64,000 bases of DNA. Origin: Pseudogymnoascus verrucosus. Taxonomy: Eukaryota. Shown here one piece after another: positions 1-51,488 of this stretch. A program made the position numbers and the translations under genes. How positions within the stretch are numbered: position 1 is the first letter of the stretch; every line of letters begins with the position of its first letter. The stretch lies in NCBI GenBank assembly GCA_001662655.1, contig KV460237.1; one strand, given 5' to 3'. Below the pieces are notes generated by a model. It was not told the origin of the DNA. It saw nothing but the letters and a program-made list of their open reading frames with translations, and searched no databases.

Positions 1-462
1 TTGGTCCCAGGAGCGCCTCTTGAATGTCGACTGCCTCGAGGAGGGTCTCCCGCTCCAAGGCCTTAATCCAGCTGCCCTGAATCCAAAGCTGCTTGATCGA
101 GATATCTGGAATCAAACTATCTCCACCTGGAAAGGGCAGGATTGACGTCCACGCATGGCCCGAGAGATTTGGGTATTTCGAGGAGAAGGGTGGCTGGCGG
201 AGATACAGGATCGGCAACGAAAGATATGTGCCAATTGACACCGTAACGGCGATAGTCGCAAGTGCGTGCCGTGCCATGACCATCCCGAGATGGGACATCC
301 ATCTGTGAAGCTGGTGATCATCGTGAAGTATGGGTGGGTTCAAAGTTCTGTTTGCACGATAGTAAGAAATAGAATGCAGTCACCTAGGATGGGGAAGAGT
401 TGGCTTTGACCAATAACATGACACACTTACCCTCGTAGAACATAAAGCAGATACCATATCAT
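1..462 (-). CDS. scp1: SREBP cleavage-activating protein (SCAP/Scp1-like), 5' portion; gene runs off the left edge
   Basis: Manual translation: ATG at 462 gives MIWYLLYVLRG, then a GTAAGT...CAG intron (430-348), then GTLNPPILHDDHQLHRWMSHLGMVMARHALATIAVTVSIGTYLSLPILYL...NLSGHAWT...PDISIKQLWIQGSWIKALERETLLEAVDIQEALLGP, open to base 1. This matches the N-terminus I recall for Pezizomycotina SCAP (MIWYLLYPFRGTTEPP...NLPHHVWT...IWVHGSYMKAL...QDELLGP). The sterol-sensing and WD40 domains would lie outside the window. Not in the ORF track. Confidence 0.8.
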
Positions 463-513
463 CGTAATTAAAGTGCATGTTGTGCGTTGCTGTCTACGGT
501 AGGTTGATGAAAG

Positions 514-547
514 CGTGCTTAACCATCCCTTTCGATGGTTAAGCACG
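514..547. repeat. Perfect 14-bp inverted repeat (hairpin) upstream of the SCAP ATG
   Basis: CGTGCTTAACCATC (514-527), loop CCTTTC, GATGGTTAAGCACG (534-547); overlaps the E-box CACGTG at 544-549. Confidence 0.9.
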
Positions 548-1055
548 TGACTAGATGGTCGGTTTAACAGGTTTTATTAGATATTTCCAGGATACGGGGG
601 GGATCTACACACGGTGTAATTCTCCGGTGGCCTAAAATATCCCTTCTGGCAAAACGGAAGCTAGTATATGGCGTAGTAATACATACAGTGATCAATTGAG
701 TTATTCTATCCATTCAAATGGGCCTACGCAGTGGTTTATAGGCTTTGAAGAGTCTGCTATGACCCCCGAAACCACTGAGTAGTCTACTGTTTCCAGTGCA
801 GAGCCTCTACTAGCCCTAGTGAGTACCACGGGGAGAGCTGGCCCTACGGTGAGGATTACCAGCTTTTCAGGGCCAAAAACCCGGAATCTCCCAGAGCTCG
901 GCCCGGTTTCCCAACGGGTTTGGCATTATCAGTATTATTATTTACGGCAGTTACATCACCGAAGAAGGTACTGTCACTTCGCGCGGACTCTGGACGCGAA
1001 TAGTTCAGCGGCAATAAGCTAGACATGTATGCATGAGACCCGCAGCCCTGGTCAT

Positions 1056-4000
1056 TCAGCAACGTGTGTCCCTCATCCCGACCAACCAACTTAACACATC
1101 AACACATAGCATCGCTATCTCACATTTGACATTCTTTCCCAGTCCACTGTTCCTACCCTGTGTCCCGCTCATCCACAGCTTCAGAGCACCTGCAACGTTC
1201 TCTAATGCTCCCCTAGTCTCATTTTCGAGAGCATTATCCCGAAATGCTGTGTCTAACCAGTTGTATGCAGCCGTGAAACCAAGGAGGCCAAAATCATTGT
1301 CATATATGTGAATGTTTCTGATTAAGGCGATTGCTTCTTTCTTATATTGCGCACGCTTCAGGAGCGCAACAGCCATGGCATATTGCAAAGCTAGGCGAAG
1401 CTCAGGATGAGTCTCTGAATTTATAGAACTGGATAAAATAGCATCAGCCATTGTTGGAACGCAAGTGCCGGATTTCGACAGCGGCGGTAGAACTTGAAGA
1501 GCGGCAGCAATATTAGCACCCCGATGCTCGTTTAGTAGTACTGCGCAAGCAACAACACTGTAGCCTTGAACTAAAGACCCAGTGGGGGAAATCTTTAGGG
1601 CGAGATCAAGATCATGTTGGAAGTCAGCATTGCTGTCCGCAAGGCCAGTTCTCGACCGGAGAAAGTTGACTAGCGCTTTGTGAAGTTTAACACATGAGCA
1701 CCACGCAGAAAGAGCATCTAACGGAGAACCTATAGCAGTGTCATTGATGACAGTGTTCATGCCATCAGTGCAATCGGATACCTTGTTGTCGGTTGGCCTA
1801 TCCCAAGCAAGATTGTGTGCCCGTTGCACCACTCTGTGCTGCATGACGGTGTCAATGTCGAGATCTAGTAAATTAGCCAAATAATCTGGCAGCGCGTCCG
1901 ATCTAGATGTGTCGTTTAATGGCAGTGATAAGCTGATTCGGTTATGGAGCTTCCTCGCTTTCACCCACTGATATCTTGCGAACTTCATAGCAAAGGTCCT
2001 GCACAAGTACCGCCCGCGAAGCTTGCTATTAGAAAGCTCCCATAGAAGGACATGAATGTGGAGGGCTTTGAGCATAAGTCGATAGGGTGTTACGGGAAGC
2101 GTTTCGGAAGCTAGAATCGTTAAGGCTAGTCGACTCAAATTGATCTCAGCGTCGCCGCCAGTAAGCTGCGCATCAATTGCGATTTCCCATGCCCTAATTC
2201 GTGCCACTTCCTGCTCTTCAGTTGCACCAGTCAACATTGCGTATCCATGCCATCCAACGACTTTGCGGATCCCTAGGTTCAGAGACTTCAACAGCAGGGC
2301 TGCGAGTTGTTGCAGAAGGCTATTTTGTGGAACCCAGACCGTCTGAATGGCAGTAAGCCAGGCGCTGCGTCGAACTTCTACCGGTGATCCTAGTGGCAGA
2401 GCAGACTTAGGTGCGAGGTATGGTACAGCCTTTACTTTTTCCTGTAGCTTCGAGTCGAAGAAGGACGGAGAGATAATATAAATGACGGCACCGAACAACA
2501 GGAGGACTTTGAATACGGTGTGGAAGCTTCGGAGTAACAAAGCAAATTCGACAGCATTCGACGGACCCAGTGACCATATGATGTCCCCTAGCTGCCCGAT
2601 GTATTCAGTTGGCAGACTGAAAAGACCGCGAGCTGAAGGCCCGTCGTAGGCCTGCTCATTTTCACCCAAACCTTGCATGACCATGAGACCAGCTAATGAA
2701 CCCACCATGAACTTGCTCATGTATCCGCCACGGCTGGTATTCTGCCTACCGGCAAGGCGCACATCACGACTGGGTGGGGAAGCCTGGTTGGTCGTCGCAG
2801 TATTCGCTTGGTATTGTAGATGTGCTGCATTCCCACGTATTCCTCTCCACTGTAGTGGCTCTTGGTGTCGGCCAGTATCTATTTCTGGTGATTTTGTAGC
2901 CGCCAGCGCTTTAAAGACATCGAGTCGTATTTGCATCGTCGCCATCTGGTCGTTATGTTTCTTGATACGTTCCTCTAGCTCTCGGATATAGTCAGCTGCT
3001 TCTGATAAGACCACCGCTTTATTGATCTTCTGCCCTTTCGATCCATGATCATTGTTGACGTTCTCATATTCATCCTCGTTATGCCCGCTGCCCTGATGAG
3101 TTTTATTATACTTAGCCTTCAGGTTTGGTAACCTATTGCAAAGTGCATCAATCTTATCGTTGAGGTTCGCCCGGTATCTCTTTTCAATGATATTATGGGC
3201 TGCTTTCGCTCTCGGCAAACGCTTGCGACCTGCAGAAGTTGAACCAGCCTCATCATCGCTGACTGAAGGCTTCCGCTTATTGTTTGGTATATTATGACTC
3301 GGTTCAGGCGATGTTGCAGACGGGGCCCAGCCGTCACGGCTCGTGGAAAACAGACTCTGTTCAGTGAGATCACTGCTGTGTGGCGGACTGGTTTGAGAAG
3401 ATCGCGCGAATTGGGGATTCAGGCAAGTGTCCGTAACCGTACGGAGTTGGGATCCCCCTAGAAAGTCCAAGTTCAGATATTCTTCTGTCCATTGCGGGAT
3501 GAAATCTGCAGGTGGCAGCAGGCTCTCACTGGGAGACACATGGGTGCATCCGAGAGGTGACCCACCATCGCTCGAGTTACGATCGATTGGCGTTATTGCT
3601 TCGCCCGTTGCCGTTGCCGAGTGGGGAAAAAACTCGGGGTAAGACGTTCCATCGTCGGTCGCTAGAGGGGTAGGTGATCTTAGCAGATCGTTGTCCCCAC
3701 CCCATTGTGTCCAATCCTCCCAATTGTTCCAATCGAAGAACGACGGAGATGTTGTTGCAGTAGTCGTATCCCTCGGTAACGGATGCCACGCAGTAGCTGG
3801 ATCTCTACCATCTAAATCTGTCGTCAAGTCGACGGACGTGGCCGAAGAGGGAAACCGCTGGCTGTAATCCGATGAAGCAGTATATGTTGAACGTGTTCTC
3901 GACGATGTGGAACAGCGGCTAGTGTTCGAGAAGAACGCGATATTCTACGTCCCGTCAGCGACGACACCAAAGGGTGACGGGAGAAACACCAACCACATCC

Positions 4001-4062
4001 TCTTCCAAGGCAACAGGACCGTGCTCCGTAGCCTCATCACCAAGGCTCTGGGGGGTTTCCAT
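1056..4062 (-). CDS. Sterol regulatory element-binding protein (SREBP; SrbA/Sre1 family) with bHLH, membrane segments and DUF2014-type C-terminus
   Basis: bHLH HNIIEKRYRANLNDKI carries the SREBP-diagnostic Tyr. It is followed by MSKFMVGSLAGLMVMQG, SARGLFSLP, a TM segment FKVLLLFGAVIYII, and RRSAWLTAIQTVWVP / AWEIAIDAQLTGGDAEINLSRL / SPLDALSAW blocks typical of fungal SREBPs. True start inferred at ATG 4062 (METPQSLG) with a phase-0 intron at ~3993-3945 (CTGAC...TAG) joining in frame to the ORF-track frame. Confidence 0.93.
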
Positions 4063-4309
4063 TGTACAGAACCCGTCTCGAGATGCGCGTTGGCCGAGAA
4101 AGATGGGAAAATATGGAGAGAAGCAAAAATGAAGAGAATGGTATTCGAGGGTCTATTCTATTGACTACTTGTCTGGTCGGCCCCGCATGTTGGTTGGTGC
4201 CGAAGGTGGACTGATGGTATCAGGCCAGTCCACGCACTAGACCATCGTCCTGGGTTGGTGGCGAAGGGACCACGCCAGGGACGATGGTGACACCGTCAGT
4301 GCGCTATTT

Positions 4310-4375
4310 GAATTGTCCAATCGCATACGTGTAAAGGAATAAGGCCTGTTCTAGACGCTATATATCACATGATAT
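4310..4375. repeat. 66-bp promoter module, copy 1 (between divergent SREBP and JEN1-like genes)
   Basis: GAATTGTCCAATCGCATACGTGTAAAGGAATAAGGCCTGTTCTAGACGCTATATATCACATGATAT; matches 8333-8397 with 4 substitutions and 1 indel. Confidence 0.92.
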
Positions 4376-4696
4376 CACTTCGATATCGATCCAAATAGAA
4401 GCACCTTTTGCAGATATGCAGAGCAGAGATATAACAATCGGGCCGTATAATAATTAAGGGTTTGGGCGAGCCTCTAAGTCCGAGAACACTGCCTGCCTTT
4501 TGCACGCCTAGTACTGACTCCCTGTTTAGACTTCAGGATGATTAAAATTCTGTGGCGTATGTATATAGAGGGCTACAGGCCTCAAAATAGTGACTGATGG
4601 ACCCTTGCACCTGTGTCTTGCTTGTGTCTTTCTGCGACAGCGAAATTGAATATCTGCATTACCTGCTCCGAGCGACAGACACAACTAACCGCCACG

Positions 4697-6568
4697 ATGA
4701 GGAATTACATGGCCGCGGGTTGGTTCTAGTATGCTGCCCTCACTCTCTATAGTACTCCCCATACTGATATCAGCAACAGCTCCCCTAGCCAGATAAAACG
4801 CTACATTATATCGCGCCCGATGAGCTTGCGCCCACCAGTGACCAAGCTCAGGAATCCGATCTCTGTTCTCCGCGAACTTAATTCTCACCAGTGGATAATG
4901 TTCCTCGTTGGTTTCATTAGCTGGGTCTGGGATGCGTTCGACTTCTTCACCGTCTCACTGACCATCACTGATATCGCAAATGACTTCGGAGTCTCTAAAG
5001 CGGATGTCTCTTGGGGAATTGTATGTTCACTTCCTAAGCAGCATTGATTTTTCTGACGGTGGCTACCCAAGACTGTAACTTTGATGCTTCGATCAGTTGG
5101 CGCTCTGATCTGTGGAGGTTTATCCGATCGCTACGGCCGGAAGTGGCCTATGATGATTAGCCTAGGCTTGTTCGTTGTCCTCGAACTCGGATCTGGCTTC
5201 TGCCAAAATGTTCAGCAGTTCATAGCAATCCGTGCTATCTATGGCATAGTCATGGGCGGTACGCATTTGGTCTCTATTCCAACCTATACCAGCATTAATC
5301 CGTCTAGGACTCGTCGGCCCTGCAGCAGCAACGGCACTGGAAGATCTCCCCTACGACGCTCGCGGTGTCCTCTCAGGACTCTTCCTCTCTGCTTACGCTA
5401 TCGGCTACCTCCTTGCCGCCGTCTTTTGCCTTGCGCTTGTTCCTACAACGCCGAACGGATGGCGAAGTCTGTTCTGGTTTGGCGCCGGCCCGCCCATCCT
5501 CATCATGGCCTTCCGTTATTGGGCCCCTGAGACGAACGCCTTCCAGATCATCAAGGCCGAGCGCGATTCCAAACACAGACACAACACTGACCTTAGTGGC
5601 AGCGCGTCGAAGTACTTTGATCTTCATACTTACACCCGGGAAGCCAAGGTCGCGCTCACGCAGAACGTAGGCTCTCTCTTCCGCTATAGGGTTTTCATCC
5701 TCTAATAACCTTTCGCTCTAGTGGGTTCTAATCACCTACATGGTCATCCTAATGTCTGGCCTCAACGCGACAACCCACGGCAGCCAGGACTTCTATCCCA
5801 CCTTCCTCACATCGCAACTCGGCATGACTACACAAGAGGTCACAGTCATCACCGTTGTGGGCCAGATTGGTGCCGCCATCGGCGCCACATGTATTGGGTA
5901 CATTAGCACTTTCGCCGGCCGCCGGTTGACTATGATGACAGCTGCTGTCTTTGGCGGCGCCATCCTGCCCGCCTATATTCTCCCAAAAACTAAGTCCTTA
6001 GCTGCGGGTGCCTTCTTCGAGCAGTTCTTCGTGCTCGGTATCTGGGGTATGTCTTTGTTCCTAACCATTTCGTATCCCACCACGTGAAACCAGTACTTAC
6101 CTTGCCACAGGTCCCGTTGCGATACATCTAATGGAGCTTTCCCCACCTGCCTTACGCTCCCTCCTTGTTGGCCTAACCTACCAACTGGGCAACCTCGCCT
6201 CCTCGGCGTCAGCCACAATCCAAGCCACAATTGGGGAGAAGTTCCCACTTCCCCCTAGCGCGACGGAATCAAATCGCTTTGATTATGGGAAGGTTATTGG
6301 GATCTTCATGGGAGCGGTGTGGGCATACGATGTGATCATGCTGTTCATAGGCCCTGAGATGAGCCAAGAGGAGCGGGATGATGAAGCTGAGGCTGGGCTT
6401 CAGCTTGAGAGGTTGAGAAAGGCGGGGATGAGTTTGTCGGAAGTCGGGGCGGCGAGTGGGGCGTGGAAGGTAGAGAGGGAATTAGAGTTGCAGAGGGTAA
6501 AAAGCGTGGCTGCTGCAAAAGAGATGGAGGGAGTAAAGGAAACCGACGTTGCAGGAGAGAGTGTGTGA
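4697..6568 (+). CDS. JEN1-like carboxylate (lactate/pyruvate):H+ symporter, MFS
   Basis: Multi-exon: MRNYMAAGWFY|SPSQIKRYIISRPMSLRPP..., WVWDAFDFFTVS, TLMLRSVGALICGGLSDRYGRKWP, ATALEDLPYDARGVLSG, NATTHGSQDFYPT (JEN1 signature NxxS/THxS/TQDxxxT), GLTYQLGNLASSASATIQA. Confidence 0.9.
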
Positions 6569-7199
6569 TGCTGTAGGCTAGCTATATGAGGGGATAGGCG
6601 CTGGGGACAGTAAATTATAATTTATGACTGCTCTTCGTACCCTATTTCTTATAGTTGCATTCTAATAGAGAAAACTTAAGGATGAAATTGAGAGAGATGT
6701 TATGGAAGTCTGGTATTCATTTCGGGTCTAGACATGCGCAGGGAGGCGCAGGAGGCATATAAGTGGAAGGCTGACGGACCATAGGCGAGGATAGAACGAA
6801 ATGTATAAGATATTAGGATATACGAGAAGGAGATTGTGGCGGCATAACTAAAGAAATTTATTAAGAGACAAGTCTCACATATAACAAAACTGCCGTGGCC
6901 AGGGCGCCTATTGCTTGGAAAAGATCCGGCATAAGCATTGCCAAAAATTCTTTTGCATTCCTTACGCTTGCCGTCTGTTCGTTACTGCAACTATTTCCCT
7001 TTATATTAATTATCAATCTAATAGAGATGCTTCAGATCAGCTCTTCGTTATTCACCCACAGCCCTATCACTGCTCAATGGCTCATCGATATGGCCACGTT
7101 GACGACAAAGTGAAGGTAAGTTCCTTTTTATTTCAAACGTAAAGTAAATCGACAATTAAATTCCATTTAGCTACTAGACTCCTATGAAATTCCCAGCGG

Positions 7200-7907
7200 T
7201 CAAGAGATCCGCACTGCGGCTTCTGCTAGCTTAATACTCTCCGACGTCTGACCTTTGATAACACTGATCAGATAGTTTTCCCCATTAATGCCCACTGCAT
7301 GTATAACGGCATTCTCCCCAAATCCACAGTCTCCCTCGTTATCACCCGCCTCATCGTATTCCGCAAAGCTCTCCTTGGTGATTCCGTCCTCTTTGGACAA
7401 GAGCACGCCGTGTGCAAAGGCTCGCGCCTTGTCGTCTCTCATGAATATGCCCTCGATATTGACATCGCGATCTTGTCCTTCATCGCCGTTCGCATACTTG
7501 ACATTCGTTTGCACTACATAGTAGAGATCGGTCGCAATCCGGCCGTCCTCATTATCAGTCGTTAAGTGGCCAATGTTGGGAGTAGTGCTAATGGAAATGC
7601 GGAAGGTTGTTCCATCAGATGCCACCGCGAATACCACCAGACCCATGCGTTGATGGATTCTATAGCTCTCTAGGGCCGCAGGATCGACCTCATATTGTGA
7701 GAACCACTCTCGCTCGTAACCAGCATCAAATAGGCAGCTGTGCGCTGCAGCTTTGGCGGCCTCTGGAGTGCGATATGTTCCAGCAATGCGGATCTTTTCA
7801 ATCACACTATTGGGATCCTTTTGGATGTGAGAAGTCGTCAAAACGATATGGTACAAGTTTTCAAGGTTGGCATTGCCAACGGAGGTGTTCTGAGTAGAGG
7901 AGGCCAT
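7200..7907 (-). CDS. Hypothetical cytosolic protein (235 aa), function unknown
   Basis: Single long ORF. ATG 7907 (MASSTQNTSV) is preferred because a TATATA box lies ~50 bp upstream. Two similar halves (LYHIV...IAGTYRTPEAAKAAAHSCL / LYYVV...IEGIFMRDDKARAFAHGVL). Confidence 0.75.
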   Translation of the reverse strand: MASSTQNTSVGNANLENLYHIVLTTSHIQKDPNSVIEKIRIAGTYRTPEAAKAAAHSCLFDAGYEREWFSQYEVDPAALESYRIHQRMGLVVFAVASDGTTFRISISTTPNIGHLTTDNEDGRIATDLYYVVQTNVKYANGDEGQDRDVNIEGIFMRDDKARAFAHGVLLSKEDGITKESFAEYDEAGDNEGDCGFGENAVIHAVGINGENYLISVIKGQTSESIKLAEAAVRIS

Positions 7908-8332
7908 TTTGTTTGTCTGCTCTATAAGATACTCTAACAGGACATTGAGACAACTATATATATGAGTTGCACACAACTTCATGCTCTGGAATAAGATGTG
8001 GCGTTTGTCGGGTTCCGACCGCATCATGTCACACCCCTACACGGGGGTCAAGGTGATTCATCCAGCAACCAGTAAACTTTGCTAGTTTATCCATCTCTGA
8101 TCGTCATTCTCTATCAGCCCACAGTGGTGTGAGAAACCATAGTGGAATTAGTGTTTATCGCAATGGCCAGGGCTAGCTCTAGTATACCCATATACACAGC
8201 AAAGGTGATTGGTGACACCACTATAAATATTCATGCATTTATTGGCAATGGTTAGTGGCGGGTCAGTTGATCCATCGCATCTAGACCCCTCTAACAAGTT
8301 CGATGTGACATGTCATGGCCCGTGCGCCAAGC

Positions 8333-8397
8333 GAATTATCCAATCGTGTACGTGTAAGGAATAAGGCCTGTTCTAGACGCTATAAATCACATGATAT
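8333..8397. repeat. 66-bp promoter module, copy 2 (between the divergent hypothetical gene and the bZIP gene)
   Basis: GAATTATCCAATCGTGTACGTGTAAGGAATAAGGCCTGTTCTAGACGCTATAAATCACATGATAT; direct repeat of 4310-4375. Confidence 0.92.
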
Positions 8398-8629
8398 TAA
8401 TAGAGATCTAAGTACTCTCTAGACCCACAGAAAATATAAGATGGAATACAGAGCATATGTCCGGAACCTAGGTAGTAGTATTGAACGGAGGCATGTGGTA
8501 ATACGCCTAATTTGCACATATCTTGTTGCTCTTTGCCAGCTTGTAAATATCAATCTAGTAAACCGCCCAAGCCACGAGTTCACTCAAATATCTCAAATCT
8601 ATCACACATCATATGAACTACTAGCAAAG

Positions 8630-9814
8630 ATGGAGGATCCATTGACCATGTTCGACAACAACTTCCACATCTCAGACTCCGAGATGCCTTACTTCTCATA
8701 CCCAGATGCCTGCGTCGACTACCAGGTCACCGACTTCAGAAATCTCTCATGCCTCTTCGACCCACAAATAAGCTACCAAACTGAACCTAATGTCCACCTC
8801 GACAATGCTCTCACCAGAGTTTCCCACAGCAACAGGAGCAGCATCAGCAGCATCAGCAGCAATGAGTCCCCAGAACTTCACGAGGATCTCCCTAACTTCT
8901 TCTCTGAGCACCTGTTATCCTCCCCGGCTACTGGTCAGCCATTTGCAACTCTCGATGCACAGATCCCACACTCGGGATACTCTTCAATGCCATTAGACAG
9001 CCACCTAGCTATCACAGCGCCGAACTCATGGGCCTCGCCACCTCCTACGTCTCCTTCTACGTGCCCCGCTATCTTCACCTCTGGCTTGGAACCATTCAAG
9101 CACCACACGGTGATGAATCATGGACAAGTAACACCGGGCAATTCACCTAAGGACCTTCAGCCCTTACTACGGGAGAGCACGAAAGCTGCGCCGATGACGC
9201 GGCGGCAGTCGAGAAAGGGGAAGGAAGTAGCAGCTGTCACTACTACTACTAATAATGCTACTGCTGCGGTATCGGTCGAGAGCGAGAAAAACACGAAACC
9301 ACTTAAGGATGGTAGGGCGAAAGTCAAGAAGCCGACGAAATCGCAGCAACCGTCGAAGAAGACAACTCTTGAGAATGTTGCTGCTAAACGGGAGGCATTC
9401 CTAAAGAGGAATAAAGAGGCGGCATCTAAGTGCCGGATGAAGATGAAGACGCAGAGGGTGGAGGATGCAGTGAGAATGACGGTCCTCACAGAGGATAATG
9501 CGTCGAAGGGGCTAGAGGTCGAGAAGTTGAGGAGCGAGGTATATGGATTGAAGAAACTGCTGTTGTCGCATTACAGAGAGTGTGGTGAGGAGAGGCTCAT
9601 GGAGTATTGGAATGGGTTTAGAGGCGTAGGAGCAGGGGAGGGGGTGGGAGCTGGGAGGCACGGAGATGGAAATGTAGTGGGCAGTGTAGAGGGAAGCTTT
9701 GAGGATGGTGGGGTGAATATTTATGAGGAGGAGGGGCGAGAGGAGCCGAGGCAGCGCCACAGAGACGACATGGAGGATATTTCCGTTTGCTCATTCGACT
9801 CTGGAGTGCATTAA
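8630..9814 (+). CDS. bZIP transcription factor, ATF/CREB-like (Atf21/AtfB type)
   Basis: Basic region KREAFLKRNKEAASKCRMKMK followed by a zipper ending LRSEVYGLKKLLLSH..C; HGQVTP motif upstream. Start at MEDPLTMF (8630) is inferred; the ORF track opens at 8441. Confidence 0.88.
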   Translation: MEDPLTMFDNNFHISDSEMPYFSYPDACVDYQVTDFRNLSCLFDPQISYQTEPNVHLDNALTRVSHSNRSSISSISSNESPELHEDLPNFFSEHLLSSPATGQPFATLDAQIPHSGYSSMPLDSHLAITAPNSWASPPPTSPSTCPAIFTSGLEPFKHHTVMNHGQVTPGNSPKDLQPLLRESTKAAPMTRRQSRKGKEVAAVTTTTNNATAAVSVESEKNTKPLKDGRAKVKKPTKSQQPSKKTTLENVAAKREAFLKRNKEAASKCRMKMKTQRVEDAVRMTVLTEDNASKGLEVEKLRSEVYGLKKLLLSHYRECGEERLMEYWNGFRGVGAGEGVGAGRHGDGNVVGSVEGSFEDGGVNIYEEEGREEPRQRHRDDMEDISVCSFDSGVH

Positions 9815-10187
9815 ATGATGTCATGAATATAGACGGTTGGGAGTAGAGTGGGAGCTAGAGTCGAGCCCGAGCTTTGGGGTTGCGGCGGTTCGGTTTATCT
9901 TGACACTTTACTAGGATTAATAAAAGCTCGTCTGTATGGCTGTTCTGTTGATTGGATTCGTCAGGAAAATGATTTGTTGTGGAGCCAGACCATCTCCGCA
10001 CTTTCTGGCAGTTGGGGCGGGATGGCTTGGGGGTGGCGTGGGGATGGCGCGATGGGTCCGGGATGTACATTAGGCCACCCTAGACCGCTGAACCCCTAGA
10101 CCGTGCCTAGACCACCTGGATCACATAGACCACCTGGACCACACCACCCTGGATGCGCCCTCCAGCGCCCTAGGCCACAGTGGCGTC

Positions 10188-10232
10188 GAGTTCCAATATT
10201 CGGACAACCTCGGTGTCCGAATATTGGAACTC
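10188..10232. repeat. Perfect 19-bp inverted repeat with 7-nt loop
   Basis: GAGTTCCAATATTCGGACA (10188-10206), ACCTCGG, TGTCCGAATATTGGAACTC (10214-10232). Confidence 0.95.
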
Positions 10233-10688
10233 ATGGTCGTGCTGCACCGCTTTGCCACTATGACAAGGGGCCGGCGATGTACAGTACAGTGGTGGAGCTC
10301 AAATGGTACTGTGGAAGTGGATGTCTGGTGGCTCAGCCTCGCAGTCTGCTTCTCATTCCTCTAATGTAACTAGGATCGGCCTGCGCTCTGCTATGACTTC
10401 CATTGGCTTATATATAACGTCTTGCGCTGTATGTGAGTGTCAAAAGCTTCACCTTTGACAATATGTCATGTTGCGCCGACATGTCTATCTCTTTCCCCTA
10501 CACACGTTAGATACGATATACACGCTATATTCACACATTGTCCACACACATGTTGTTTAGCTCTGACTAGAGTGATACTCCTAATTACTGCTCACACAGC
10601 CTCACGTTATAAAGGCATTGGACACGCTTTGATGTAATAGACCAACCTCAGTTCACTCAACACCACTATCACCATCACGACCACCACC

Positions 10689-12308
10689 ATGGGCCACCTC
10701 ACCCCTACCACCCTCCGAACCATCGATATCTCCCTTTCGGGTGACAACCACAGCGCTAAAACTCCCCGCCCCGTGCATACCTACACTACCTACGACGACA
10801 TCCGCGGCCATGTCGCCATCTCCGCCCTCACACCAACCCCCTTCTCACGCGTTGAAATCTTCCTCCTCGGCACCACCCGCACCGCACACACGGATCACAC
10901 CGTCCCCGTCATCGCCGAGCCACAGGTAACCCACATCTTCTTACGCATGGCCATGCCTATCCCCCCCTCTGCATACCCTCCCCCTTCCGGCAGCAGCAAC
11001 ACCTACCTTCTCAACCCCGGCTGCCCCCTACACATCCCCTTCCATTTTGTCGTCCCCGCGCGCCTCCTCCCCCACGCCTGCCGCCACGAGCACTCCTCAG
11101 CCTCCGTTCCAGAAGCACACACCCAACTCCCCCCCTCCCTCGGTTCCTTCTTGCTGCCCCGCGACGACCTCACCTTTGAAGTAGCAAACATCTCCTATTC
11201 TATCTACGCTAAACTCCTCGCGCCCTCTCCTACCAGCAAACCCTCGAAAATCCTCTCCTCCGCGATAAGGAAATTCCACGTTGTCCCCGCTAGCGAGGAG
11301 GCGCCCCCACTACTCGTGCTGAAAGAGAGTCAGTATGTGCTCTCTAAGAGCAAAACCATGCGGAAAGGCATGTTTAGAGGGAAACTAGGCACGCTCACGC
11401 TAACGACTACGCAACCACGCGCCTTCTCCCTGCCTCCCCCGCGCACATGCGGCCCTCTCGTGCCTTTCGCCCTCACAGACCTAACCTTAACCCTACGCTT
11501 CGATCCCACGGACCCCTCCTGCGCGCCGCCCCGACTAGGTGCGCTCTCGGCTTGGATCCGTGCGACAACGGTGCACTCAATTAACCCCGCGAGCAGAATC
11601 CCTGATCAGGAGCTACAGGGCAGTCCGTACGATAGCCACAGCAGGGCGTTTAAGACGTACGTCGCGCTCGCGGCCCAGGATGTGCCCGCGGCAGCGGCGC
11701 CGTTGTGGCGGGTTGTTCCCGCGCCGAAGTATGCGAGGACGGACTCGGGGTATTCGACTGCGTGGTCGCTTTCCCCCACTCCTTCACCTAATTCTTCGCC
11801 GACTCCGTTAGCTGCGTCCACGGGTCCTCTTGTCTCGGTATCCGCCGCTTCCGCTAGCGGAGACGTGGATGAAGTAGACGAGAAGAAACCCTACTACACG
11901 ACAATCGCTCTCCGCCTTGTCCTCGCGCCGTCAAGAACGTGGATCCCGACATTCCACTCCTGCTTCGTCTCGCGCTTTTATACGCTCGTCCTTGAGCTCG
12001 TGGTGCACCCTCCTGGAGCAACGATGCCGTTTATGCTTTCCCTCGAAGTCCCCGTGCAAGTGATTGGGCAGGGGAGAGAGGGGATGAAGGAGGCTTTCGT
12101 TGCGGGTGGACGGGCGGGGAGTGTGGGGATGGGGGAAGGAGGGGACATGAGGGGGTTAGGAGGGGTTTGGGACAGGTATGTGGCAGGGGGTGGGGAGAGC
12201 GTGGATGCGTATGGGGGTTGCGGAGGGGAGGAGATGGGGCAGGGAGATGAGTTGTTGCCGGCGTATGTGGCGCCAGACTTTACGCGGCGGAGAAGGCGAG
12301 GGAGGTGA
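10689..12308 (+). CDS. Arrestin/Bul1-like adaptor protein
   Basis: YTTYDDIRGHVAI, HIFLRMAMPI, IPFHFVVPARLL..AC.H, HTQLPPSLG, IPTFHSCFVSRFYTL, LEVPVQV and a C-terminal LPAY (PY-like Rsp5-binding motif); 539-aa ORF. Confidence 0.8.
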   Translation: MGHLTPTTLRTIDISLSGDNHSAKTPRPVHTYTTYDDIRGHVAISALTPTPFSRVEIFLLGTTRTAHTDHTVPVIAEPQVTHIFLRMAMPIPPSAYPPPSGSSNTYLLNPGCPLHIPFHFVVPARLLPHACRHEHSSASVPEAHTQLPPSLGSFLLPRDDLTFEVANISYSIYAKLLAPSPTSKPSKILSSAIRKFHVVPASEEAPPLLVLKESQYVLSKSKTMRKGMFRGKLGTLTLTTTQPRAFSLPPPRTCGPLVPFALTDLTLTLRFDPTDPSCAPPRLGALSAWIRATTVHSINPASRIPDQELQGSPYDSHSRAFKTYVALAAQDVPAAAAPLWRVVPAPKYARTDSGYSTAWSLSPTPSPNSSPTPLAASTGPLVSVSAASASGDVDEVDEKKPYYTTIALRLVLAPSRTWIPTFHSCFVSRFYTLVLELVVHPPGATMPFMLSLEVPVQVIGQGREGMKEAFVAGGRAGSVGMGEGGDMRGLGGVWDRYVAGGGESVDAYGGCGGEEMGQGDELLPAYVAPDFTRRRRRGR

Positions 12309-18257: not shown

Positions 18258-18529
18258 AGCTAGAGTTTACTACAGGAGATCTCATTTCCGATGTGCACTG
18301 GGGTCAAAAAGTCGTATCTAGGATAAGCTTGGCTTTAAACTAGACGCTAAATTGTCACGACAACAGCCTTTCCCGCCTTAGCAAAAAAAAGGGGTAGTGC
18401 TTGGCAGAGTGGGTGCATATTCTAGGGACTATTGCTATTGGAGAGCTAGAGTTTATGACAAGAGATCTCATTTCCGATGTGCATTGGGGTCAAAAAGTCG
18501 TATCTAGGCTAAGTTTGGCTTTAAACTAG
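18258..18529. repeat. 86-bp direct repeat (18258-18343 and 18444-18529) in the divergent promoter
   Basis: AGCTAGAGTTTA...GAGATCTCATTTCCGATGTGCA(C/T)TGGGGTCAAAAAGTCGTATCTAGG...TTGGCTTTAAACTAG twice; 6 mismatches; 100-bp spacer. Confidence 0.93.
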
Positions 18530-46564: not shown

Positions 46565-49500
46565 TTAACTCCCGCTATGCTCTTCGACTAAGCAGGAATA
46601 GTGCCTTCTACATGCTAATGTAGTTGGATGGTCCCGCCCAAGGGCAATTTCATAGCCGTTGCATGCCCTCTGGTACAGTTCCGCCGCAGGCTCATAACGT
46701 TGCAGGGAAGCTAGAAGGAAAGCCAAGTTGTAGACGCTAGTGAGCGTGTCTGGATGGTTGACCCCAAGCTCCCTCTCTCTCCCTTCTAGCGCTCGTCGGT
46801 TCATCAACTCTGCCTCCTCATATCTTCCCTGGCTGTCTAGCACTAACGCAAGGTTGCTAACGCTAGTGAGCGTGTCTGGATGGTTGACCCTAAGCTCCCT
46901 CTCATACCCTTCTAGCGCTCGTCGGTTCATCAACTCTGCCTCCTCATATCTTCCCTGGCTGTCTAGCAGTAACGCAAGGTTGCTGACGCTAGTGAGCGTG
47001 TCTGGATGGTTGACCCCAAGCTCCCTCTCCCTCCCTTCTAGCGCTCGTCGGTTCATCAACTCTGCCTCCTCATATCTTCCCTGGCTCTGTAGCACTGACG
47101 CAAGATTGCTGACGCTAGTGAGCGTGTCTGGATGGTTGACCCTAAGCTCCCTCTCATACCCTTCTAGCGCTCGTCGGTTCATCAACTCTGCCTCCTCATA
47201 TCTTCCCTGGCTGTCTAGTACTAACGCAAGGTTGTTGACGCTAGTGAGCGTGTGTGGATGGTTGACCCCAAGCTCCCTCTCTCTCCCTTCTAGCGCTCGT
47301 CGGTTCATCAACTCCGCCTCCTCATATCTTCCCTGCCTGTCTAGCACTAACGCAAGATTGCTGACGCTAGTAAGTGTGTCTGGATGGTTGACCCCAAGCT
47401 CCCTCTCCCTCCCTTCTAGCGCTCGTCGGTTCATCAACTCTGCCTCCTTATATTTTCCCTGGCTCCGTAGCACTAACGCAAGATTGCTAACGCTAGTAAG
47501 TGTGTCTAGATGGTTGACCCCAAGCTCCCTCTCCCTCCCTTCTAGCGCTCGTTGGATCATCGACTCTGCCTCCTCATATCTTCCCTGCCTCCGTAGCAGT
47601 ATCGCAAGGTCGCTAACGCTAGTGAGCGTGTCTAGATGGTTGACCCCAAGCTCCCTCTCCCTTACCACTATTGCCTCTTGAAGTATAGGCTCAGCGCGGA
47701 TGGCCTCGCCTTTTTGTATATAATACCATCCTAACCTGGTATTTATCGCTGCAACACGTAGCAGATCTTGCTGATCAGTCGCTTTGGACGACATGACCGT
47801 TCTCACGTGAGGAAGCAGAATCTGGCAGTGAGACCACGTCTTATAATCTCCATTTGGGAACAGTCTTTCTGTAATCTTAATCGCCTCGCTCCGCCATTTC
47901 TGTAGCTGTCCGTTCAACTCTACCCACTTCCTGGTCGACAGCTGCACCAGCCGGTGCATCTCGAATGCGCCGCCTTCTGAATGCTCTCGGATCAGCGAGA
48001 AGTTGACCAGCGGCGCAACACTATCCTCAAACAGCAACTGGTCTGTGTTATTATGTAGCAGCCGCTCGGGAATACTCTGTCTATCGAACATGCACATGAG
48101 CGAAAGCAGGTCTGCAGCTTCGGCATTCGTCCGTTGGATCTGATCGAACGAAATCTGCCACGTCGTAATCACCGCGTGCCTGATACTGTGATCGCGCCGG
48201 AGGTCTTTCGTCTCATCGTTATTCAGTAGACTAGTCTGGTTAGCCTCGCTTTCCCGGAACAGACTGAGGTATATAGATATGGTAACCCGCGGCCTTGACC
48301 GTATGTATGCTGCAGCGTGCGTAATCGCCAGTGGAATACCTTCAAGTGCCTGGGCTAGCTCCTTTAAGTCTGCCTTAGAAATTTTGTCTGCTGGTATCTT
48401 CGTCTTGAGCAACTCAACCGAGTCCTTCTCTTCCATTGGCTCTACCGGTATAAATTTACCAAACGTGTCGACGAGGTTGTTGGCCGCGGTCGAGTTACGT
48501 GATGTGATAAGGATTGATCCGTTTCGCGACTGAGGAAGAAACGTCTCTAGTGGTGGCTGCAAGTTGGTTGCTTGGTCGTGCGGTGAGACGCCCCTAACGA
48601 CATCATTATTCTCAAAAAACACACTTCCGTCGTCGACATTGTCTAGGACCATATGCCACTGTCCGTTGGCTTCATCTGACAGCCAATTGTATACTAGGCG
48701 TAGCACGTTGGCCTTTGGATCGTCTCGCCCCGGAAGCTCAAGCCTCTCTGCAATCTCTTGATACGCTTGTTCGAACCGGGTCTTGGTACTTGCATGGATC
48801 CAAAACACTGATATTTGCGGTCGGTGCTTCCGCGCTCGGTATGCATACTCGATAGCGATTTGGGATTTCCTACACGCATTTAGCCGCCGTGAAGATGGGT
48901 ATGGTAGCAGACCTACCCAACTCCCCCAAGACCGACTAGTGCTTGTCTCCTGTGCTTTTTTGGCGCCTCCTGCTGGCCTCCTAAGTCTAGTTGATCTAGA
49001 ATGTCTTCTCGACCAACGAAGTGCTCGTCTTGGGAGAAGGGAACTATAAATGGTTTGCTAGGTGCTGGATGAACTGAGTGATCAGCAGCATAATACATTA
49101 CTAGCATATAGTTACGTACAGGATATATCATTGTTATCAGCTAAGTTCGTTTCCCTGCTCGACAGTCCAGTCCTTATGAATTGCTTTAGAACTCCACAGA
49201 TCTGGCGGTAAGACGCATCGTCTCTGCTGCTACACCTAGCCATTTCCATATGATTCGCGTCGATGGTCTCTACAGTTTCTTGTTCCCTAGCGAGATCGAG
49301 CTTCGAGGAAAAGTTGTCGACTACCTGTGATATCTATTAGTTTCTGCAGCTCCATAGGTTACAGTCTAGTATTTTACTTTGCTGTCTAGACCTCTCATGC
49401 CGGAAATCCCCTTCGCTTCTTGGAACGAGTGAACTTTGATGGCGTATTTAGTAAGTATAGTCTTGAACTCCTCGTGAATATTGTCCAAAACCTCGTCGTT

Positions 49501-51123: not shown

Positions 51124-51281
51124 AGTCTAGAATCTTTAATCTAGTGAAAACTATATTATTACCAAATATATCGTAGAATAGATGTTTATTATAATATTTA
51201 TTAGTCTAGAATCTTTAATCTAGTGAAAACCACATCATTACCAAATATATAGTAGGATATATGTTTATTATAATATTTATT
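51124..51281. repeat. 79-bp AT-rich tandem duplication
   Basis: AGTCTAGAATCTTTAATCTAGTGAAAAC...TGTTTATTATAATATTTATT at 51124-51202 and 51203-51281; 6 mismatches. Confidence 0.93.
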
Positions 51282-51488
51282 ATCTTGGTCTTTTGTTTCT
51301 TGTCTTTGTTTTTGTCTTTTCGTTATAATGATATTAAGGCCCTGCCCCAGTTCTACCAAAATGCAGAAGTGTGCATCGAGTTTATCGATGTCGTACAAAT
51401 AGGTTATACCAATGAAATGGAAGTCCAAGGTGCCGTGTGGCTTACTATGTTGTATCCAATGTGTATCCGACGTATGATGTATCCAACT

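Follow-up and report, generated by a model that had tools for sequence, protein, structure and literature searches.

A short block of sequence that occurs twice, here called the module, was examined in a stretch of 64,000 nucleotides (nt) from Pseudogymnoascus verrucosus (assembly GCA_001662655.1, contig KV460237.1), referred to below as the window. Its two copies form a direct repeat with a separation of 4022-4023 nt; each lies in an intergenic region of its own, and the pair brackets two genes. Copy 1 lies between an SREBP gene and a transporter gene of the major facilitator superfamily (MFS), and copy 2 lies between a gene for a conserved protein of 235 amino acids, called the hypothetical gene below, and a bZIP gene. 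The neighbours named in an initial annotation made from the letters of the window (SREBP, SCAP-like, SHS/Jen1-family transporter, hypothetical, bZIP) were all recovered, and its placing of a two-copy, locus-specific module with promoter-type motifs in two divergent intergenic regions was supported. The genes and the two copies are as follows.

2..1026, minus strand: first part of a SCAP-like gene that follows the SREBP gene on the same strand; it runs off the window
1056..4062, minus strand: SREBP gene, encoding a bHLH domain with the EKRYR tyrosine and a DUF2014 domain; ATG at 4062, intron at 3945-3993
4299..4375, plus strand: module copy 1, in the SREBP/transporter intergenic region, 236 nt from the SREBP ATG and ending 321 nt before the transporter ATG
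4697..6568, plus strand: MFS transporter gene of the sialate:H+ symporter (SHS, 2.A.1.12) family; 533-amino-acid model
7200..7907, minus strand: conserved 235-amino-acid protein, function unassigned, with a sub-threshold DUF7336 match; the public protein starts at 7907
8322..8397, plus strand: module copy 2, in the hypothetical/bZIP intergenic region, 414 nt from the hypothetical-gene ATG and ending 232 nt before the bZIP ATG
8630..9814, plus strand: bZIP gene, 394 amino acids, with a long 5' leader carrying two conserved upstream open reading frames

Alignment of positions 4310-4375 with 8333-8397 gave 61 identical columns of 66 (blastn E 3e-22 against the 64-kb window). The copies differ there by four substitutions, at 4315, 4324, 4325 and 4363, and by one indel of 1 nt within the A run at 4333-4335, in agreement with the counts first described. 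The similarity was found to start 11 nt further left than first described, at GTGCGC, which sets the limits of the module at 4299-4375 (77 nt) and 8322-8397 (76 nt). In a repeat search a weaker similarity of 74% extended leftwards to 4288/8311. The flanks had been called unrelated, and no relatedness beyond the limits was found when both intergenic regions were aligned locally, upstream and downstream of the module and also on the opposite strands: Smith-Waterman scores fell within the shuffle distributions, with 259, 138 and 227 of 300 shuffles reaching the observed value. The copies have an exact 27-nt core in common; two matches to it were present in none of 100 dinucleotide shuffles of the window. 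A minus-strand open reading frame that begins at an ATG inside copy 1 (4326-4324) was rejected as non-coding; copy 2 has no such ATG, and the frame stops after 31 codons.

The module is the sole dispersed repeat within the window, all remaining self-matches being local tandem arrays. Copy number and variation beyond the window were assessed from Logan contigs of public sequencing runs aligned to 3600-9900, which are not a finished genome. Run X2 shares 95% of its words with the window and is about 0.2% diverged from it, and run X3 shares 59% and is about 1.6% diverged. Long contigs from both runs cover the two copies colinearly, and the depth over each copy equals that of the single spanning contig. 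No third copy was found in X2 (about 32 Mb, the whole run) or in the X3 contigs. Six X2 contigs aligned: two that span the locus, one with a transporter paralogue, one with a 42-nt match, and two with low-complexity sequence at 8826-8862. Since the aligner also returned matches of 37-42 nt elsewhere in X2 and X3, down to 37 nt with five mismatches, a third copy of 66-77 nt at 80% identity should have shown. X3 differs from the window at 4289, 4308 and 4379, and at no position inside 4309-4378 among the differences listed; zero differences in 66 nt is unremarkable at about 2% divergence.

These data bear on whether the module is a fragment derived from a dispersed transposable element or from a miniature inverted-repeat transposable element, the first of which, in high copy number, the initial annotation had set against its own proposal. 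The module is short, AT-rich at one end and intergenic, as such a fragment might be. Against this stand the two copies in the window with no further one in the X2 and X3 contigs, and the repeat search of 3000-10000, in which no inverted arms or target-site duplications bracketing either copy were found. A 23-nt module pattern had no match in the genome-contig or viral-contig collections, and a protein-alignment scan of the genome-contig collection had none either. No Rfam family (E up to 1, 3500-9500) and no tRNA (whole window) was matched. A mobile element is therefore an extremely improbable source of the repeat.

Each copy can be divided into a left and a right half:

4299..4334, plus strand: copy 1 left half, with GTGCGC, CCAAT at 4317-4321 and TACGTGTAA at 4326-4334
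4335..4375, plus strand: copy 1 right half, with TATATA at 4359-4364 and ATCACATGAT at 4364-4373; absent in a related metagenome contig, L001
8322..8357, plus strand: copy 2 left half, with GTGCGC, CCAAT at 8340-8344 and TACGTGTAA at 8349-8357
8358..8397, plus strand: copy 2 right half, with TATAAA at 8381-8386 and ATCACATGAT at 8386-8395

From left to right, the order is GTGCGC, CCAAT, TACGTGTAA with its ACGT core, a 24-nt spacer, TATA and ATCACATGAT; the CCAAT, TACGTG, TATA and near-palindrome motifs reported at first are thus present in both copies. CCAATCG begins at 4317 in copy 1 and at 8340 in copy 2. The left halves are identical at 29 of 36 positions and the right halves at 41 of 42 (counted over 4334-4375, which includes the end of TACGTGTAA). 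The sole right-half substitution leaves the TATA consensus intact (TATATA in one copy, TATAAA in the other). Both copies are oriented alike, towards the two rightward genes, with the TATA box 338 nt before the transporter ATG in copy 1 and 249 nt before the bZIP ATG in copy 2. TACGTGTAA has an ACGT core yet differs from TGACGTCA, the canonical ATF/CREB-type consensus, and copy 2 of L001 has TACGTATAA instead. ATCACATGAT is an E-box-like near-palindrome, one base off ATCACGTGAT, the palindromic E-box bound by mammalian SREBP-1; it shares up to three bases with the 8-nt TATA footprint and lies 42 nt from CCAAT.

The history of the module was read largely from L001. A scan of metagenome contigs with alignment of the 235-amino-acid protein gave four loci, of which only L001, a single assembled contig of 4618 nt, was close. 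Its identity to the window is 90.6-92.5% in coding sequence, and between the hypothetical and bZIP genes it is 85.6%. Counterparts of window positions 3000-4282 and 7000-9571 are present, and about 2.6 kb (~4325-6988) is missing:

4325..6988, no strand: segment absent from L001, comprising the right half of copy 1 and the whole transporter gene

The left breakpoint lies within 4322-4336, inside copy 1, and the right one within 6950-6988, about 1.35 kb before copy 2, so that the hypothetical gene is retained; several one-jump parses score near-equally. TACG / GCAT microhomology is found at both window junctions of the deletion, and an inverted duplication with 11-nt arms (GCGATTGGACA .. TGTCCAATCGC) lies beside the L001 junction. 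The inverted duplication points to complex break repair there. Copy 2 is intact in L001, with 40 of 42 positions matching in the right half (over 8356-8397) and 32 of 36 in the left half (matches minus insertions).

A remnant of copy 1 was also recognized, at L001 2697-2641, where the left half is kept as GTGCGC..CCAATCGC..TACGTGTA. It contains GTGCGCTA, TGTCCAATCGC and TACGTGTA as collinear exact blocks totalling 27 nt, a value reached by 1 of 3000 shuffles in the comparison with copy 1. The chained exact-block statistic is weaker against copy 2 of the window (90 of 3000) and copy 2 of L001 (50 of 3000), and plain Smith-Waterman alignment of the module with the L001 filler was marginal (score reached by 45, 151 and 62 of 1000 shuffles). 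The remnant also carries states that are specific to copy 1 of the window, T at 4305 and C at 4324. TCCAATCG, containing CCAAT, is invariant in all four sequences: copies 1 and 2 of the window, copy 2 of L001 and the copy-1 remnant. TATATA or TATAAA is present in each of the three right halves at hand (both window copies and copy 2 of L001). The SREBP upstream region of L001 contains two extra blocks, at 3060-2990 (about 73 nt) and 2860-2700 (about 165 nt), and both are rich in TACGGTA / GTACATAG-like words.

The initial annotation had put forward an alternative in which the repeats mark where a 4-kb segment, the transporter and hypothetical genes, was inserted, which would be between the SREBP and bZIP genes. 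Direct repeats 4022-4023 nt apart that bracket two genes are what such an event might leave. The alternative fails on the only variant found, in that L001 drops the transporter alone, loses only about 2.6 kb, keeps the hypothetical gene and copy 2, and has breakpoints that are off the repeat ends. Nor was an empty site seen: a joint of copy 1 to copy 2 (~4375 to ~8333) was present in none of four runs.

Gene order in the genus argues in the same direction. It was read from the locus tags and accession numbers of homologues in seven named genomes (VE04, V496, VE00, O988, VE03, V498 and P. australis). One annotated gene, identified by tag position only, separates the SREBP and hypothetical genes in all four genomes concerned (VE04, V496, VE00 and O988), and the pair of hypothetical and bZIP genes, with one gene before the hypothetical gene, is found in all four genomes that have both tags. 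The SREBP and bZIP genes are separated by two genes in six of six (VE04, V496, VE00, VE03, V498 and P. australis), although the V498 SREBP and bZIP proteins may sit on different contigs. A search with transporter exon 4 and a cluster look-up for the intervening gene returned no Pseudogymnoascus locus tags. The SREBP tree places the L001 species, for which a protein with 99.6% identity to that of L001 was used, inside a clade with 100/99 support together with the window and five of these named genomes, and VE00 falls outside it. The transporter itself is older than the split between the window and L001 because it has only about 82% exon identity to its nearest paralogue. On the strength of the locus tags, the SREBP tree and the divergence of the transporter paralogue, this suggests that the four-gene order is ancestral and that L001 has a derived deletion. 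The probability that the repeats are an insertion scar is accordingly very small.

The age of the two halves was estimated from the same comparison. Given the remnant blocks in L001 and the copy-1 states that it shares, the left half was probably already at both places before the window and L001 diverged. If the copies predate that split, the intergenic divergence of 14.4% predicts about 6 differences in 42 nt, and 1 was seen (Poisson P ~0.02), so that the right half would have been either constrained or homogenized. In conservation between the window and L001, the right half of copy 2 ranks among the top 8% of the 42-nt windows of that intergenic region. The block is sharp-ended and more identical than its age allows, as is expected after gene conversion; purifying selection gives the same pattern. 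The near-identity of the right halves beside diverged left halves thus appears to reflect purifying selection, gene conversion, or both.

The reading that we favour, at about even chances, is that the module is an old, two-copy, locus-specific proximal promoter that is common to the transporter and bZIP genes and that has been kept alike by selection, conversion or both. The CCAAT-binding complex (CBC) and a bZIP protein that recognizes the ACGT core would occupy the left half, and the right half would be the core promoter that sets the start of transcription, so that the transporter and bZIP genes would be driven alike by their module copies. The neighbouring bZIP would be the most economical candidate for the ACGT site, which would make it autoregulatory. 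Because an ACGT core stands beside CCAAT and a gene for an ATF2-like bZIP begins 232 nt downstream of copy 2, bZIP autoregulation is at least as economical a guess as control by SREBP. The left half may work for the leftward SREBP gene too, since the related species kept that half after losing the transporter.

A number of observations weigh against this reading. The RNA-derived contigs of run X13 stop short of both copies and place no transcription start; the earliest RNA-derived transporter contig starts at 4611, and the spliced X13 contigs reach neither copy. Conservation between the window and L001 is not exceptional, with 9% of 77-nt intergenic windows at least as conserved as the module and 41% of 36-nt windows equalling the left half. 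The uniform identity of the right half, which includes the motif-free spacer, suggests recent copying more than it does selection on individual binding sites. Furthermore, the left breakpoint of L001 (4322-4336) coincides with the step in identity between the copies (last mismatch at 4324-4325), and this coincidence counts against a purely functional explanation because such an explanation does not predict it. The comparative case rests on one metagenome contig, L001.

Other points of the same kind concern the SREBP site. According to PMC4223079, the ChIP-seq motif of SrbA, the SREBP of Aspergillus fumigatus, is (A/G)TCA(T/C/G)(C/G)CCAC(T/C), and an earlier SrbA motif, ATC(G/A)(T/G)(A/G)(C/T)(G/C)AT, and a degenerate S. 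pombe motif are quoted there. ATCACATGAT misfits the ChIP-seq motif, with T at position 7 where the motif has a dominant C. Counting for the site, the earlier SrbA motif is fitted by the reverse complement of ATCACATGAT and the S. pombe motif by its forward strand. Both motifs are loose, however, and occur in the window about as often as by chance: the earlier one, of 15 bits, has 4 matches, against about 3.9 expected, and the S. pombe motif has 242. A bHLH dimer and the TATA-binding protein could hardly co-bind, as the E-box-like site overlaps the TATA box. Binding of SREBP to ATCACATGAT is possible, and it would be the weakest link of the mechanism. A HapX-type site was sought 11-12 nt past CCAAT, and no fit was seen there; no claim here rests on it.

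Several of these points would be accounted for if the repeat were a by-product of DNA repair that brings no shared regulation with it. Some 50-77 nt would have been copied recently, in either direction, between the bZIP and the SREBP/transporter intergenic regions, by ectopic gene conversion or by templated break repair that was seeded by a weakly similar older element. The sharp step in identity, from 29 of 36 on the left to 41 of 42 on the right, the abrupt end of similarity at 4375/8397 with unrelated sequence beyond, and the identity even of the 24-nt spacer that contains no motif are all in keeping with this, and the locus has a history of breakage, as seen in the L001 breakpoint and the inverted duplication with 11-nt arms. 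Such copying needs homology, however, and the left half at 81% identity is a poor substrate. Among the differences listed, the extra A (4333-4335) and the T at 4363 are unchanged in X2, X3 and X10, and the conservation of the right half of copy 2 in L001 (40 of 42) is unexplained by copying within the lineage of the window. A copied core promoter would, in addition, still be expected to drive transcription. We regard a repair by-product as the chief rival of the promoter reading and a genuine possibility, though not the outcome that we would expect.

The initial annotation went further than a promoter common to two genes. In its full model, SREBP binds ATCACATGAT, the CBC competes with it at CCAAT, and five genes form an autoregulated hypoxia/fermentation regulon. 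The SREBP of the window does have the tyrosine within EKRYR that is described in PMC4223079 as the dual-specificity feature of the SREBP family. Two papers on A. fumigatus also describe SrbA bound at the promoter of its own gene (PMC4223079) and competition of the CBC and SrbA at cyp51A, where their sites partly overlap and are followed by a HapX site (PMC4954732). Further points for the model are that ATCACATGAT fits the two loose published motifs, that a SCAP-like gene adjoins the SREBP gene, and that the locus tags suggest that gene order was kept in all seven named genomes.

The misfit of ATCACATGAT to the ChIP-derived motif and its overlap with the TATA box tell against this model as well, and the 42 nt between CCAAT and ATCACATGAT contrast with the overlap at cyp51A. 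The module is directional, towards two genes only, so that "four" or "five genes" exceeds what its anatomy offers, and the SCAP-like gene has no module copy in the window. One lineage, L001, has lost the transporter and, with it, the sole ATCACATGAT in the vicinity of the SREBP gene. Gene order conserved inside one genus is a weak argument for a functional cluster, and more distant homologues of the 235-amino-acid protein (52-54% identical; tblastn) were not found near a bZIP gene, an SREBP gene or this transporter at any of three loci. One narrow literature search, which covered titles and the openings of abstracts, returned no paper on fungal SREBP regulation in Pseudogymnoascus. Taken together, the five-gene regulon is quite doubtful.

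A circuit can also be drawn from the promoter reading itself: a composite promoter whose core is held identical by gene conversion, whose CCAAT/ACGT half is common to the SREBP gene, and which would place SREBP-SCAP, the bZIP and the transporter in one circuit. We think this extension unlikely. If it were true, L001 would be a natural dissection of the element, in which the transporter and the core half were lost and the CCAAT/ACGT half was kept beside the SREBP gene.

The kind of element is known; this instance is new. Motifs shared in divergent (bidirectional) promoters occur in fungal gene clusters, where short symmetric sites are reused across many promoters. The module is similar in that each copy lies between divergent genes and neighbours may share regulatory input, but it differs in being a contiguous block of 77 nt that includes a TATA box and has a fixed orientation, rather than a short symmetric site. 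It also resembles short dispersed repeats under concerted evolution, in which paralogous segments are more alike than their age predicts and tracts have sharp ends. Ectopic conversion tracts are usually seeded by longer homology; conversion here is a possibility only, and L001 lacks the right half of copy 1. With respect to the SREBP pathway, the SREBP gene here adjoins a SCAP-like gene, whereas A. fumigatus is reported to lack SCAP.

Two further systems are known from A. fumigatus. The TR34 and TR46 alleles of cyp51A (PMC4954732) are, like the module, short two-copy promoter segments (34-77 nt) with CBC and SREBP-type sites, and having such a segment twice is believed to alter regulatory input or to make it shared. 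TR34 is a head-to-tail tandem in one promoter that arose recently under azole selection; the module copies, in contrast, stand in two promoters separated by 4 kb, and the left half, at least, is older than a species split. The sites partly overlap at cyp51A (PMC4954732), whereas those of the module, which are predicted sites, are 42 nt apart. The second system is the autoregulation of SrbA and its wiring to SrbB (PMC4223079). The likeness lies in a candidate SREBP-type site upstream of the SREBP's own gene and in a nearby second transcription-factor gene with the same candidate site. The site in the module, however, misfits the ChIP-derived motif, and the second factor is a bZIP and not a bHLH protein.

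If the module is functional, it offers a mutable handle of 77 nt with four separable motifs, through which two transcription-factor genes would be coupled to a carboxylate transporter in a cold-adapted soil and cave fungus. Since its halves have different histories and one lineage keeps a half, alignments across species could separate selection from gene conversion. As a mere repair by-product it would be a minor curiosity. In neither case is it a transposon or a sign of a 4-kb insertion.

The genes around the module were modelled as follows. The SREBP is 100% identical to a public P. verrucosus protein of 985 amino acids, and its 49-nt intron (3945-3993) is confirmed by a spliced X13 contig. 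Positions 2-376, in the SCAP-like gene, are 83% identical to part of a fused public annotation that leads into a sterol-sensing domain and a WD40 propeller. Several public annotations join the SREBP and SCAP-like genes into one protein; among those of relatives, fused proteins of 2123 and 1229 amino acids have sterol-sensing domains, and weak beta-propeller matches were obtained in fused proteins of 2123 and 1621 amino acids.

The exons of the transporter gene best match TIGR00891, the sialate:H+ symporter family, which we take to be the family of yeast Jen1. Its introns are at 4729-4779, 5021-5071, ~5258-5306, 5667-5721 and ~6046-6109, all five supported by spliced X13 contigs. The nearest paralogue in X2 is about 82% identical in exons. 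A transporter paralogue elsewhere in X2 and X3 (aligned to 4832-6054) has different introns and upstream sequence unlike the module.

The 235-amino-acid protein is conserved in Leotiomycetes and Eurotiomycetes, with more than 120 homologues among Pseudogymnoascus, Aspergillus, Penicillium and black yeasts; several Pseudogymnoascus genomes and run X3 have two copies. A Foldseek search of the PDB with its confident AlphaFold model (predicted local distance difference test score, pLDDT, 82.7) gave no match at an E threshold of 0.001, and VIA-align reached a Z of 5.0 at best.

The bZIP gene starts at 8630, as in the public protein of 394 amino acids, and of the solved structures ATF-2 is the closest to its basic region (E 7e-4). 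The ATG at 8441, which comes first in the bZIP frame, was rejected as the start: L001 lacks it, and the leader has indels that disrupt the frame. Two upstream open reading frames, at 8457-8471 (ATG TCC GGA ACC TAG) and 8493-8501 (ATG TGG TAA), are letter-identical in L001 despite the leader indels. Downstream, between the bZIP gene and a Bul1/arrestin-like open reading frame at 10641-12308, there is a near-perfect palindrome of 45 nt at 10188-10232 (91% self-complementary). Elsewhere in the window, a tandem array at 46711-47662 has a period of 126 nt and about 7.5 copies at 90-92% identity, and smaller tandem duplications are present at 18258-18529 and 51124-51285.

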